A stretch of DNA of 64,000 bases, from contig OZ024740.1 of NCBI GenBank assembly GCA_964016885.1, positions 231,508,001 through 231,572,000 of the forward strand. The letters are read 5' to 3'. This DNA comes from Eledone cirrhosa (lineage: Eukaryota). Shown in pieces: positions 39,201 to 45,200 of the stretch (positions are counted from its first letter, which is position 1; each line of letters begins with the position of its first letter). A program made the translations under genes and the position numbers. Under the pieces are notes generated by a model, which saw nothing but the letters and a program-made list of their open reading frames with translations, ran no database searches and had not been told where the DNA came from.

Positions 39201-42200
39201 AGAGTGGCCGTTGGGACCCTGGAAGGTGGTGGTGTTGGTGATGTGGGGACAGGTGTTGCAGCGGGGCCTAGAACAGGGAAGGGAACTGGGGGGGGGGGCT
39301 GTGGACGAGGAGGGTGCGGAGATTGCGTGCGCGTTTGAAGGAGGGGAGTGGTGGGGTTGGGAAGATGTGGGAGGTGGAGGGGTCGGACTGGAGGCGTCGG
39401 AAGAGGCGGCGGATGGTGCGGTGGAGGGGTGCGGTGGAGGGGTGGTAGGTGATGGGGAAGGGGAGACGGTGGGTGGGGGTGCGGTGGCGTGGGGTGAGGG
39501 TGGTGGAGCGGTGGACAGCACGGGTGCGGGTGAGAGCGGTGTGGACGAGAGAGGGGGGGTAACCTCTGCGGATGAAATGGCTGACTAGGGAAAGGGCCTG
39601 GGACTCGAAGTCAGCATCTCGGCTACAGAGGCGGCGGATCCTGAGGAGTTGGGAGTAGGGAATGGAGTGTTTAGTGTGGGTGGGGTGGGAAGAGGTGAAG
39701 TCGAGGTAAGAGTGGGAGTCGGTGGGTTTGAAGAAGGCGGAGGTGACGAGGGAGTGGTGGGAGGGGTCGAAGGCGACGGAGATGTCTAAGAAGTGGACGT
39801 GGGTGGTGGAGATAGAGGTGGTGGAGTGGAGGGAGGGGTGGAAGGAGCAGAAGAAGGAGAGAAAGGAGTCGAGCTGTTCTCGGGTGAGGGTCGTGGCTCC
39901 GATACAGTCGTCAATGTAACGACCCTACAGTTCGGGCGTGGGGCCGGTGTACTGGGCAAAGATTTGGGCCTCAACATGGCCAACAAAAAGGTTGGCATAG
40001 TTCGGGCCCATTCTTGTACCCATGGCTACCCCCGTGACCTGTTGGTAAAACTCACCCGAGAAGGAGAAACAATTGAGGGTGAGGACCAGCTCGGCGAGGC
40101 GAAGGAGGGTGGGGTGGAGGGAATGGGGGAGGGGCGAAGGTCGAGGTAGTATTTGAGGGCGCGTAGGCCGTCGGCGTGGGGGATGACGGTATAGAGGGAC
40201 TTGATGTCTAGGGTGAAGAGGAAGGGCTGTGGGCCGGGTGGGTAGGTGAAGGAGTCGAAAAGGCGCAGGACGTGGTTGGTATCGGAGATGTGGGAGGGGA
40301 GGGTGGTGACAAGGGGGGCGAGGATGGAGTCGAGAAAGGCGGAGATGAATTCGGTGGGGCAGTTGCAAGCGGAGACGATGGGGCGGCCGGGGTTGTCGGG
40401 TTTATGGAGTTTGGGGAGGAAGTAGATGGTGGGGGTGCGGGGGGTGCGGACGATGCGGTGGGGGGTGGGGGTGGGGTGGGGGGGATAAAGTCTTGGATGG
40501 TGGAGGAGACTTGTTGTTGGTAGAGGGGGAGTGGGATCGGAGGGAAGAGGGCGGTAGAAGAGGAGGTTACAGAGCTGCCTGAGGGCTTCGGCCGTGTAGA
40601 GGTCCGCGCACCACACCACCACGGCGCCTCCCTTGTCCGCCGGTTTGATGACGATGTCATCTCGGCTACGGAGGGAGAGGAGAGCGAGTAGTTCGCCCCG
40701 TGAGATATTGTACCGTTTGGAACGGTGGCGGAAGTCGAAACGATTTACTGCGCTACGGTTGGCATCGACGAACGCGTCCAGGGTGCTAAATTGCCCTGGG
40801 GTCGGCGTCCAAGAAGATGGTCGTCGGCCCAGGGCGAGAAACGGGTCTGGGGCGTCCGGAGCCGGTGGCGTTCGGCCGAAATGTGCCTGTAGCTTCGTGC
40901 GTCGCACGAATCGCTCGACTTCCGTTCGGGTGCGGAACTCGTCGCTGTGCGGAGTGTGGGGTATGAAGCGAAGGCCTCTACTAAGGAGTGAGCGCTCAGG
41001 TGCGGAGAGGGGGAGGTCAGGGGGTATGGTGACAACAAGTGGTGGGGTTTGGGTGGGGGTGGAGGGGGCGATTGGGTAGGGGGGCGTCGAAGGAGAGGTG
41101 GAGAGTGGTGGGCGTATGGGGATGGGCGGGTGGTGGTGGATGGGGGTGGTTGGGAGGAGTGAGTGTAGCTTGCGGGCTTTGGTGGAGCTGAAGAAGGAGA
41201 AGAGGTTGTGGTTGAGGTTTTGGATGAAGGAGAGGATGGCTTGGGCGAGGAGGGGTGGCAGGTGGAGTTAAGGCGGAGGAGGGTGGGGGTCAGTTGGTGG
41301 TCAAGTAGGCGGAGGGTGGAACGGGAGGCGCGGATGGAGTTGCGCATCAGGAGGCGTGAGGATCGGGTGAGGATACGTTGCGTGGAGGGGGAAGCGGCGG
41401 GGGAAGGGTGGAAGTGTAGACGGAAGCCGAGGGGGATAAGGTGGAGGCGGAGGCAGTGGCTGAGAAAATGGATGTGGCTGGAGTGTCGGGTTTTGGCGAA
41501 GAGAAGGTAGGAGAGTTGAAGGGCAGAGGGGAGATAGCAGGGTGGGAGGAGGGGGGTGAGGAAAAGTTTGAGGCGATTATGTAGTTGGTGGAGAAAGGAT
41601 CTCAGGCTGGGCATGGTGGGCGTTGGGTGAAAGCAGGGGGAGGGATGAGAAAGCAGGGGTGTGAGGCGGGGTGGAGTGAACGAAGGAGTGAGTGCGAAGG
41701 ATAGGCAGAGACGGGGAACGGAAAATGAAACAGAAAAACGTAAGGAGGGGGGAGTATACACAGGAAAATTAAAGACAAAAAATCATAAAGGTAAAAACAC
41801 AGGCAATCGTGAACAAAAAATCATAGAAATAAAATTGTAAGAACACAGGCAAAGAATCTTATACGGAAATAAACAAGTACAGTAACAAAATCAAACAAAG
41901 GTAATGCGTGGAAGGAAAGACCAAGTGTGGGAAGGTGTGTAAAGTTCGGAGAATGGTCACGGCGGATTAGATCGGGGTTGAGCCGGTATTTAAGTTATGT
42001 TCCAAAGGAATGGAAGCCGTGTGAGCGTGTATTATATATATATATATATATATATATATATATATATATATATAAGATCAAAAGATGGTTAAAAGAGTTC
42101 CAAGTATTTTATTATGCGCATTTCAAAAGCAAATATCATCATGGAATGATATCTGCGTTCTCATCAGATAAAATAGGGATACATGATATGAAGCTTAAAA

Positions 42201-45200
42201 AACACTTGTGAATAGTGAAGTTTTATCTGATGAGAACGCAGATATCATTCCATGATGATATTTGTTTTTGAAATGCGCATAATAAAATACTTGGAACTGT
42301 TTTAACCATCTTTTGATCTTATATTATTTATACTCCAGTCCTACAAACTGTAGAATGCTACTTATCCGATATTTGCATTGCTTTATTGTGCTACAATAAA
42401 ACTCACCTCCTACATTATATATATATATATATATATAAATATATATATACTAGCTAAACTACCCATCCTTTGGACTTTTCAAGTAGCTTTTGATGTAGCT
42501 CATTAAACTAAACAAAGTAAATTTGAATACATAGAAGAAACACGATATAACACAATCGAATATAAAAATAAAGATTAATTGTAAAATGTATTTGAAGTAC
42601 ATGTAGCGGTATAACGTTGGAAATGTACAGGGTATGTAAGTTAATAATTAAATTATGTGTCAGAAACGTAGTCTAATCAATGCGAAAAAATAGAATAATT
42701 CTAAACCATCCTTTAGATAAATTTAAGCATAATATTGTAAAAGTTATGAGATCAGTTTATATGAACATCAAGTTTGGCCGAATTAAGAAAGATAACTCTT
42801 GATTACGAAAGATAACTCTTGTCTTACTTAATCACGAAAATTCACACAAATAACCGAAATTTTTTAATGTCTCCAAAGGCCCCAATATCGATTTTTGAAA
42901 GCCTTTGTAGATCATGTACAGGTTTTGTGCAAGGAGAAACTCTGTAAAAAATGTTTTCCTTGCAAGCAGGGAAAAGCGGACGTAAAATGATGATGATGAT
43001 GATGATGATGATGATGATGAGGATGATATATATATATAGAGAGAGAAAGAACAAATGCAAGTAATCATTAAATGCCCTATCTGTACACAATGCACTCAAA
43101 AAACAAAGCCAACAATAAACAAAGCATCTAGTAGACATGACTGTCGGATTCCAAACTCGTAAAAAATACATTCGTAAAAACAAAGCCAATTACAAACTAA
43201 ATATCTATATTAGAACTAAGACATCCTCCACAATCCCTACTTCAGACATCATCCATATATCCCAATCCCTAATCCACTCTAAATATTAGTATGGAGGCAA
43301 CTGACTATTTCAAATTATGCAGTTTCTGTATAAGAATAGACATTATATATCTATTATGTATACTGATGAAATTAATGTATGCAAGATTTTACAGCCCCAG
43401 TATCACTCCTTCATAGTCAGCCTATGAACTTTTCCGCCCACCTTGTAGTAATATGTGTATTTCAATATTTATACTTACAGTGAAAATATAGCTTTTCCAT
43501 CATAACTCTTATCTTCTTCACACTCTACCACTGATGTGATATTTTCAGCAACTGATTTAGGTAGAAGATGGATACCTGAATTTGAAAGATGTATTGGTAA
43601 GAAAAAGTTTACAGTGAAAGACTAAAATATTTTTGGTTTTCTTCCATATATATATATATATATATATATATATATGAAATATATATAATTTCATATAACT
43701 GCTCTGTAAATCATCTGATGTTTTTACATTGAGCTACTTAACTTACTGGTAATAAGGTAGTAATACATTACTGCCTACCACTATTTAGGGTTTGTATAAA
43801 AAATACATATAACTGCATAAGGTTTTTGTATTTACATAACCATAAATAGTATAATTAATACTATATATATATATATATATATATATATATATATATATAT
43901 ATATATATATATATATATATGATGCAAAACTGCTCCTTTTAAAGTATTCATACTTATATTAAAACTTCCCTCATTATTTTATGTTCCAAATAACAGCTTC
44001 ATAATAAGGTGGTAACTCACGAAAGGGTGAGCAGACAGCAGGAGGATCTTCAGAGGGAGAACCCCCACCAAGCAAGTATTTTGGCCCTTGATTCCTCCTA
44101 ACACTCTAAAGGAGCCAAGTCCACCTCGGTCATGACTCCTATGTGTCCTCCTACTGTTTTTTCTCCTCCAGCAGGTGATAAAACCTTAAATATAGATATA
44201 ACATACTAACCCAGTATTATATATATACATATAACATTATATATCAATAATATTAACTTTGCCTTTCATCCTTACGGGGTCGATAAAATAAAGTACCAGT
44301 AATACACTGATAATTGGTGGCCTTGTGCCAATAGTAGAAACAATTATATATCAATAATTGTTTCTACTTTTGGCACAAGGCCAGCAATTAACCAGTGTAT
44401 TACTGGTACTTTATTTTATCGACCCCGTAAGGTTGAAAGGCAAAGTTAACCTCGGCGGGATTTGAACTCAGAATGGCAAGGGCCGTAGCTCTATGCATCA
44501 AAGCATGGCGTCCGAGCCTCTACCCATACTGCCAATCCACCGCCTTTAATATATCAATATTATATATCAATAATGAAATATTATATATTACTAAACATTA
44601 TATATAGACAGTAGGTGGAAACTCATGAAAGGGTGAGCAGACAGTAGGAGGATCTTCAGAGGAAGAACTCCCATCAAGCAAGTGTTTTGGCACTTGATTA
44701 CTCCTAACACTCTAAGGGAGCTGAGCCAACATAGGTTATGGCTCCTGCTGTTTTTTCTCTTCCAGTGGGTGATCTTATTTCCCACACCTGTTGTTTACAC
44801 CATCAGCAGAACTAACACTTCACATCTATTTAAACAGCAATGTTCATGACTTAATATATCCTAACTTAATTTTATTACTTCATTGCTTTAAATCCTTGAT
44901 TGTTTTCAAAATTGTTTAAAGAATATAGACAGACAATTTCATAAGAAATATGAGGGTGGGCTGAAAAGTTTATAGGCTGTCTATGAAGGAGTGATGTTAA
45001 AGCTGTGAAATCTTTCATGCATTAATTTCAACTCTTCTTATTAATTACTGCATTGTTTCTTTCCAGGGACTATGTTGAAAAATAAACCTTATTTGGTCAT
45101 TCCATGAGAGTACCTTGGTCAACCTATGAACTTTTCTGTCGACCCTCATATGGGTTAATATTCTTACCTGTTTGAATAAGATTTTGGATATCCTTTGTAA

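Follow-up and report, generated by a model that had tools for sequence, protein, structure and literature searches.

The window analysed here is a 64,000-nt stretch of the Eledone cirrhosa genome (GCA_964016885.1, contig OZ024740.1, positions 231,508,001 to 231,572,000 of the forward strand) and contains two copies of a repeat family that we call P1: copy A at 539-960, which also supplies the monomer coordinates used below (A-positions), and copy B at 42070-42416 (347 bases). In copy B, two copies of a single hammerhead-bearing repeat end, each truncated on its inner side, face each other head to head within (TA)n. The features of both copies, and of the element that lies beside copy B, are as follows.

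491-538 and 962-979: (TA)n flanking copy A
539-960, plus strand: copy A, a perfect palindrome centred at 703.5, with its tail at 869/877-960
771 (plus strand) and 636 (minus strand): hammerhead cores of copy A
37303-42030, minus strand: degenerate full-length Penelope-like element of another family (RT, CX4CX2C linker, GIY-YIG; ends CATT + (AT)n)
near 37423-37390, minus strand: hammerhead-like motif of this neighbouring element
42033-42074, no strand: left (TA)n target tract of copy B
42070-42225, minus strand (sense on minus): tail-less inverted arm of copy B, equivalent to A-positions 713-868
42175-42219, minus strand: 45-nt unpaired centre of copy B, where the left arm alone carries monomer sequence from further upstream, without a mirror partner
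42220-42225, no strand: head-to-head junction of copy B, a (G)TTTTA overlap of 5-6 nt at the 5' edge of hammerhead stem I
42325-42416, plus strand: one-sided tail of copy B, 84-92 nt depending on the choice of tail-less arm end, terminating in CATT
42416-42437, no strand: right (TA)n target tract of copy B

Both copies have (TA)n on either side. The left arm of copy B begins at 42070-42071 (ATATAAGATCAAAAGATGG), directly after the (TA)n at 42033-42074, and the right arm closes with CTCACCTCCTACATT at 42416, followed by (TA)n; as the left tract runs into the arm end, no target-site duplication is readable. An earlier note on this DNA gave the two copies the same outer ends, which is correct to within a few bases but not exactly: the left arm of copy A retains 3-8 nt more (to A-position 871-876, compared with 868 in copy B), and TT follows CATT in copy A, unlike copy B. 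The tail-less arm terminates at A-positions 864-868 (TATAT), the only exact TA run of 5 or more nt in the monomer, and in neither copy does the sequence extend more than 67 nt upstream of the core. The tail contains hairpins that are present in both copies, with z-scores of only −1.3 and −1.8, and an open frame of 30 codons that we estimate to be at chance level for its length.

Copy A folds back without a spacer, forming 165 of 165 pairs around 703.5. In copy B the turn-around is asymmetric, much as the earlier note had described it, with the left arm extending 45-51 nt further inwards; the GTTTTA at 42220-42225 can be assigned to either arm (5 nt when the base of copy B itself is taken at A-position 764). 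The difference in fold-back point between the copies is real but could have arisen after insertion: GTTTTA occurs in copy A at both 689 and 764, and a deletion between such repeats gives a junction of the copy B type. Over the 105 shared positions, the two arms of copy A are identical (0/105) and those of copy B differ at three (one of them the junction base), whereas arms from different copies differ at 9-10, so that arms are closer within than between copies. All eight sites that distinguish both copy B arms from both copy A arms carry the same base in the two arms of a copy (8/8), bearing out the proposal of shared diagnostic variants. Copy B is the older of the two, its arms differing at 2 real sites compared with 0 in copy A, and the unlike unique flanks and unlike junctions agree with the proposed independent insertion of the two copies.

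Each arm of copy B contains a predicted hammerhead that matches the type I pattern (core CUGANGA, GAAA, UH, helices I and II), as follows.

42105-42175, minus strand: predicted type I hammerhead of the left arm (CTGATGA at 42167-42161, GAAA at 42124-42121, predicted cut after 42113)
42220-42289, plus strand: predicted type I hammerhead of the right arm (core CTGATGA at 42227-42233, GAAA at 42270-42273, predicted cut after 42281)
42234-42269, plus strand: stem II of the right arm, 15 bp with one C.U mismatch and a tetraloop
42273-42280, plus strand: palindrome ATGCGCAT of the right arm, a short palindromic helix III

A relaxed hammerhead scan of the window returned five sites, four of them the P1 arms, whereas 20 shuffled versions gave 0-1 sites each. 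The hammerhead fold does not form on the antisense strand. Stem I comprises 7-8 bp (7 bp in the right arm of copy B), and the self-duplex of ATGCGCAT was computed at −10.5 kcal/mol. The G10.1-C11.1 pair is absent, its place in register being taken by A-U in copy A and G-U in copy B, while 778G and 813C each occur in reads (in unlinked columns). No Rfam hammerhead family matched at gathering score in the window, or up to E 10 in 42000-42500; the Rfam matches were generic hairpins (miRNA) far under their cut-offs and were discarded. Fold z-scores are modest (−0.4, −1.6 and −2.6), and transcripts of the P1 inserts are predicted to fold into one long hairpin in which the hammerhead is hidden. The P1 motif probably works like a hammerhead of Penelope-like elements (PLEs), as an atypical variant whose cleavage is predicted.

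Copies A and B are identical in the core, in stem III and along the 3' side of stem I, and the core and stem III palindrome are thus unchanged, as reported earlier. In stem II, 6-7 of 36 positions differ, yet all 15 pairs are kept. All five fixed changes preserve pairing, each one-sided and without compensation; the lone two-sided change (G-C) is private to the left arm of copy B. The chance that five random stem changes would all pair is P = 0.02 if 70% of changes are transitions and 0.11 if all are. Covariation analysis, which the earlier note proposed for all genomic P1 copies, gave no signal above shuffles on the four P1 arms (253/500 shuffles). Selection on the RNA fold is only suggested. 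As all eight diagnostic bases also appear as family-wide variants in reads, any such selection acted on source elements and not on these inserts.

Read-based counts came from 4 of 12 public runs (X1; X2, from the same sample as X1; X5; and X10, a RAD run), with reads and contigs placed on monomer positions 704-962; among the other runs, X6-X9 had small shares. The runs contain thousands of P1-family contigs, in which two fixed ends, at 876 and 959/960, occur at about 1:1: loose (TA)n ends lie behind 876 and 959/960 in 33 vs 34 contigs (X1), 22 vs 32 (X2) and 1 vs 1 (X5). The X10 RAD reads gave 383 (868 and 876 together) vs 1674 at the outer end (959/960). Five of the eight joints listed are opposite-strand joints, at differing places; the exact junction of copy B is absent among these eight. 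With that reservation for copy B, the two fixed ends and the opposite-strand joints make a simple assembly artefact unlikely, as had been argued. Summed depth over 812-856 is ~2x that of the tail in X1 and X2, a rough value that gives no copy number, and 291 of 4590 placed X1 contigs extend past the monomer ends. Among the 40 variants listed (beside 14 further rows), none falls on a conserved core base, 775 being the free N7 and 819 lying in the stem III palindrome, which 819 G>T disrupts in 1184 of 2064 one-direction reads of X10; 813 T>C, one of eight listed stem II family variants, breaks a pair by itself. A motif scan gave no matches in viral contigs, and the six loci found in metagenome contigs, with pattern-only likeness and no fold-back at any match, were set aside as chance.

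The element beside copy B was identified by a homologue search (629 homologues; PF00078 and PF01541); a Pfam scan of six pieces gave 0 families and a PDB search nothing useful. With 120 PLE proteins, tblastn matched the window only at 38909-41614, within this element, and found no coding sequence linked to P1. The idea that P1 is a terminal repeat of this GC-rich neighbour was rejected on account of the missing DNA similarity (best E 0.5) and the different hammerhead. Two further hammerhead fold-back families with the same layout are present in the window, at 3564-4112 and about 17578-17971; in the second hammerhead fold-back family the tail-less end lies away from its longest TA run.

Fixed outer ends, a variable inner junction, a tail on one arm, a (TA)n target and arms of one subfamily are directly seen, and P1 has the hammerhead in a terminal repeat, the inverted 5'-truncated copy, the tail at one end and the AT-rich target of EN+ Penelope-like insertions. 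The best overall explanation, to which we give a probability of roughly 0.75, is a Penelope-like stump in (TA)n whose mirror arm was made during insertion. That copy B is a Penelope-type stump is very likely, and the making of its mirror arm at insertion nearly as likely; within the Penelope reading, the odds of a two-primer route are about even, and we lean towards an asymmetry of copy B that dates from insertion rather than from later deletion. In the two-primer route, the element's GIY-YIG/RT protein would nick both strands of (TA)n, with one nick priming reverse transcription at the distal RNA site (the CATT end) and the other 84-92 nt further in, at a TATAT able to pair with the target. 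Both cDNAs, templated by RNA from one source locus, would stop early and anneal via a few complementary bases before fill-in, using TTTTA in copy B and the self-complementary centre in copy A. The hammerhead would act only in source RNA, likely as a dimer via ATGCGCAT, and the stem II differences would be inherited subfamily variants, likely filtered in source RNA; the inserts themselves are likely dead. More speculatively, P1 may be a Penelope-type family of very high copy number whose inserts directly record double priming, with both nicked (TA)n strands primed on RNA from one source; in this reading TATAT, through 5-nt pairing, fixes the inner start ~90 nt from the outer one and sealing proceeds by microhomology, often at the hammerhead edge.

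The same stump could instead have gained its mirror arm by self-priming or snap-back on a single template, with the tail trimmed from one side at resolution. Such a route is proposed in the available parts of PMC3846280 and PMC8557442, the former (Arkhipova et al. 2013) modelling an antisense RNA that folds back and primes its own copy. Identical arms would come automatically (0/105 in copy A; 2-3/105 in copy B), short complementarity is present at both P1 junctions, and the loop on the tail-less arm of copy B is consistent with this route provided that the tail-less arm served as template; however, plain snap-back of a tail-primed cDNA predicts that the tail-bearing arm is longer inside, the reverse of copy B, the joints 704/927 and 798/889 may be reversed as well, and in vitro extension of both strands proceeds from two start sites on the RNA (PMC11167929). 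We consider self-priming rather unlikely. Independently of the priming route, copy B may have inserted in a more symmetric form, like copy A, with the centre removed afterwards through a deletion between short direct repeats. Long perfect palindromes tend to lose their centre. The arms of copy B are the older (2 real differing sites), and microhomology-mediated deletions are described for Penelope copies in the available text of PMC3846280; yet the P1 family has other asymmetric opposite-strand joints and the 165-bp perfect palindrome of copy A is still intact, leaving later deletion a serious contender at somewhat less than even odds.

The pairing in stem II could have been kept with no ribozyme selection, by transitions at U-G and A-U pairs, to which A-to-I editing of the long helix, preceding reverse transcription, could add A>G. 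Indeed, 18 of 30 single transitions (60%) keep the pair, the probability is 0.11 both for five of five with transitions only and for seven of eight family variants, the four arms lack covariation, and A>G at an A-U pair accounts for four of the listed stem variants. Against this stand a core, GAAA and stem III identical between copies beside 6/36 changes in stem II, the untouched core bases among the listed variants, the failure of the antisense strand to form the fold and, in X10, an A>G count over the whole monomer that does not exceed that of C>T (10 vs 12); we judge neutrality improbable. A non-autonomous fold-back mini-element, MITE-like and mobile as a whole palindrome, would account for two short copies with common outer ends and no ORF, and for the very many contigs in public runs, but the copies differ in their centre, the tail is on one side only, 291/4590 placed X1 contigs overrun the monomer ends, and arms are homogeneous within and not between copies, the pattern to be expected of a mirror made anew on every occasion. 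Lacking the terminal inverted repeats with fixed body of a MITE or fold-back DNA transposon, P1 was not assigned there, and this origin is highly improbable. Least probable of all is an assembly or library fold-back artefact: a perfect spacer-less palindrome (copy A) and a copy B junction missing from the eight listed joints would suit one, but the flanks are unique and non-inverted, the arms of copy B carry private differences and are separated by a 45-nt spacer, independent short-read data show both ends as well as opposite-strand joints, and three families share the layout.

We found no published description of the P1 family in the literature, although Repbase/Dfam and paper supplements may contain one. 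Its layout is already published for Penelope-like elements, and P1 is a new example, not a new phenomenon; departures from published work are the tail of 84-92 nt, the 15-bp stem II without G10.1-C11.1, and the tail-less arm ending at the sole TATAT. The long tail and the atypical hammerhead slightly broaden the known range. The origin of inverted ends and one-sided tails in Penelope-like elements is described as unsettled, with a call for mechanistic work, in the available text of PMC8557442. P1 matters little alone; its value is as material, since a count-based test becomes feasible in a family with two fixed ends, numerous junctions and bases diagnostic of subfamilies, and, if double priming is true, its thousands of copies would form a natural data set for two-primer vs self-priming origins of Penelope inverted ends. 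P1-type inserts also spread perfect hairpins of 100-170 bp through the genome, which is relevant to assembly, and, if transcribed, these hairpins would matter for double-stranded RNA pathways.

Compared with EN+ Penelope-like insertions, as far as the available parts of PMC3846280 and PMC8557442 describe them, with an inverted 5'-truncated copy, a one-sided tail and junction palindromes that are most commonly head-to-head (PMC3846280), P1 shares the head-to-head inverted copy, variable inner truncation, one-arm tail, junction palindrome or overlap and microsatellite target; it differs in its 84-92 nt tail, as opposed to 30-40 bp, in having no ORF in either copy and in showing no readable target-site duplication. 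Several observations run counter to the best explanation: no coding sequence linked to P1 and no DNA similarity to the neighbouring element, a tail 2-3 times the published length, the missing G10.1-C11.1, the missing Rfam hammerhead match, the modest fold z-scores, the variants 813 T>C and 819 G>T, and the absence of the copy B junction among the eight listed joints. Metazoan PLE hammerheads, in the available text of PMC4209133, include paired minimal motifs on opposite strands, 100-700 bp apart; P1 resembles them in having a core of type I, an enlarged helix II and a short, palindromic helix III suiting a dimer, as well as opposite-strand pairs and structure-keeping variation among copies, and differs in a helix II of 15 bp instead of 7-8, a helix I of 7-8 bp with A-U pairs only, and, in copies A and B, the absence of G10.1-C11.1 and of the unpaired base after A9 that are usual in minimal hammerheads. 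The Poseidon element PAc of Anolis in vitro cleaves and extends both strands at AT-rich targets, from two RT start sites that bracket the tail (PMC11167929), properties that match the two fixed ends of P1; PAc starts at sites non-homologous to the target and has its tail within the beginning of the ORF, whereas P1, with no linked ORF, has its inner start at TATAT. The non-homologous PAc starts speak against a TATAT-primed inner start, as does the tail-less end of the second family, away from its longest TA run. Finally, P1 resembles animal non-LTR retrozymes, as outlined in the available text of bioRxiv 10.64898/2026.07.22.740005, in being short, non-coding and Penelope-derived with a type I hammerhead; retrozymes are head-to-tail tandem units, whereas both P1 loci in the window are head-to-head, and for these loci a retrozyme assignment was rejected on that ground.

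Copy B (42070-42416) of P1, a hammerhead-bearing repeat family with two copies in the window, was compared with copy A (539-960), on which the arms are numbered; the tail is the one-sided outer stretch ending in CATT.

Features of the window
539-960: copy A, perfect palindrome (165/165 pairs around 703.5), then right-hand tail
A-positions 713/719-868, minus strand: copy B, left arm
A-positions 764/765-960: copy B, right arm
42030-37303, minus strand: degenerate Penelope-like element (PLE), directly left of copy B
3564-4112: second fold-back family with a hammerhead, in (TA)n; its head-to-head arms are 88% similar
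~17578-17971: third fold-back, with a hammerhead-like motif (CTGAAGA) at both 17613 (-) and 17813 (+)
44253-44449, 28244-28371, 46293-46494, 4278-4414, 6638-6754, 13282-13449: more short fold-backs, whose two arms do not both hold a hammerhead core

The earlier note's description of copy B, with its structure-preserving stem II changes, is correct and the observation real. The turn-around is asymmetric, the left arm being ~45 nt longer: 42175-42219 (45 nt) is partnerless, and (G)TTTTA at 42220-42225 is assignable to either arm. Across the 105 positions that the arms share, there are 0 differences between the arms of copy A, 3 between those of copy B (the junction base, 809 and 843) and 9-10 between copies, and eight diagnostic sites separate both B arms from both A arms. 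Outside the (TA)n tracts, the flanks of the P1 copies are unique and non-inverted. The note's closer likeness of arms within than between copies is confirmed; its reading as independent insertions, and not a simple assembly artefact, stands. The most probable identity of copy B is the stump of an ordinary Penelope-type insertion. Two small tail hairpins (885-897 and 927-945) have stems identical in A and B, and alone are not significant.

In every P1 arm a 36-nt stem II separates CTGATGA from GAAA; the arm also has the palindrome ATGCGCAT, an AUA triplet and a stem I of 7-8 bp. A relaxed hammerhead scan of the window gave five sites, four of them in P1; the 20 shuffles yielded 0-1 sites apiece. 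Folding prediction forms stems I and II on the sense strand, not the antisense; fold z-scores were -0.4, -1.6 and -2.6, no Rfam match was found to the hammerhead, and the P1 ribozyme is a prediction only. Stem II comprises 15 pairs and one C.U mismatch, closed by A-U or G-U, with G10.1-C11.1 absent. Five pairs differ between A and B, each by a one-sided change that retains pairing (A-U/G-U three times, U-G/U-A and U-G/C-G). Five random stem changes would all retain pairing with a probability of 0.02 if 70% of changes are transitions and 0.11 if all are. The sole two-sided state is private to the left arm of copy B. The note's claim of selection on the RNA fold is weak and concerns source elements: pair counts for stem II covariation were not above shuffles (253/500), and because transcripts through A or B are predicted to fold into a single long hairpin (-291 and -176 kcal/mol), the hammerhead would be selectable in source elements only.

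Part of the stretch is present in 9 of the 12 public runs listed. Four runs were aligned to the monomer (704-962) at 80% likeness, yielding 4590, 3948 and 54 contigs (X1, X2 and X5; X1 and X2 are a single sample) and 5174 reads (RAD run X10). Loose (TA)n ends cluster behind 876 and 959/960.

Loose (TA)n ends among those listed (230 more lie beyond these)
X1: 33 at 876, 34 at 959/960
X2: 22 at 876, 32 at 959/960
X5: 1 at 876, 1 at 959/960
RAD run: 383 at 868/876, 1674 at 959/960

Among the eight joints listed, five connect opposite strands, at varied places, and the copy B junction is absent. The 40 variant rows listed, of 54, contain all eight A/B diagnostic bases, neither of copy B's two arm-private bases and no variant of a conserved core base; in these rows, 7/8 variants at paired stem II positions retain the pair (P 0.01-0.11). 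Position 775 (free N7) is variable in reads, some RAD reads have 819 G>T, which disrupts the palindrome, and 813 T>C disrupts its stem II pair unless linked with 778G. The frequencies of 778G and 813C are similar in the RAD run; if linked, they would restore a G-C closing pair. In the stem II region 778-813, another subfamily, with loose ends before 805/806, has a different 5' side, which on visual inspection still pairs with the unaltered 3' side.

The window is AT-rich, repeat-rich, animal-like DNA with 33 (TA)n tracts, many copies of an RT-bearing LINE and a tRNA-derived repeat; its short repeat families are presumably octopus-SINE-like. The 3564-4112 family (core CTGAGGA at 3737 (-), 6-bp stem II, one-sided tail of ~62 nt, tail-less arm finishing AATAT) and the ~17578-17971 family (inner nested palindrome 17673-17795, one-sided tail, (TA)n on both ends, tail-less arm halting directly after GAAAT) have the layout of P1. 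A single decayed arm of the former lies at 21306-21545, and 44253-44449 is a SINE-like end pair, head-to-head or tail-to-tail, around a TA-rich centre. The degenerate PLE, present once in the window, is GC-rich and full-length yet frameshifted. It bears DKG, PKxHK, GxxMG, YIDD, CX4CX2C and GIY-YIG-region motifs; its 629 homologues have PF00078 and, in some cases, PF01541. A hammerhead-like motif of its own lies ~100 nt from the CATT end. The element terminates in CATT + (AT)n, as P1 does in CATT, and no terminal repeat or inverted arm was found in it. As it has no sequence similarity to P1, it and copy B share only the target tract. Penelope-type inserts in (TA)n abut LINE copies at their (CAT)n end (962-1020; 37230-37303), which is nested microsatellite targeting.

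The two outer ends of P1 are fixed and its inner ends free, with short junction complementarity; its arms come from one subfamily and its target is (TA)n; the tail-less arm stops at the monomer's only TATAT. By analogy with PAc, the Poseidon element of Anolis, for which both target strands prime reverse transcription from two RNA sites in vitro (PMC11167929), we propose that both target strands would prime at two RNA sites separated by 84-92 nt, after which the two short cDNAs would be linked and completed by fill-in. The same facts are also explained if an antisense template primes itself and is trimmed later (PMC3846280); copy B speaks only against a plain snap-back of the tail-primed cDNA. 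The copy B junction would also be given by a later deletion between GTTTTA repeats, which copy A has at 689 and 764.

No description of the P1 family was found in the paper texts searched; the accessible text of the octopus genome paper (PMC13282606) lists Penelope-like families and mentions hammerheads 0 times, and PMC12602865 contributed nothing further. Retrozymes, as described in bioRxiv 10.64898/2026.07.22.740005, are tandem units, whereas P1 is not tandem. The neighbouring PLE's CX4CX2C linker fits the Neptune/Nematis type of PMC8557442, where a typical PLE insertion is an inverted 5'-truncated copy with a 30-40 bp one-sided tail. PMC3846280 reports PLE junction palindromes, and head-to-head as the most frequent arrangement. 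According to PMC4209133, PLE hammerheads form pairs on opposite strands 100-700 bp apart; their helix III is palindromic, and compensatory changes abound in their families.
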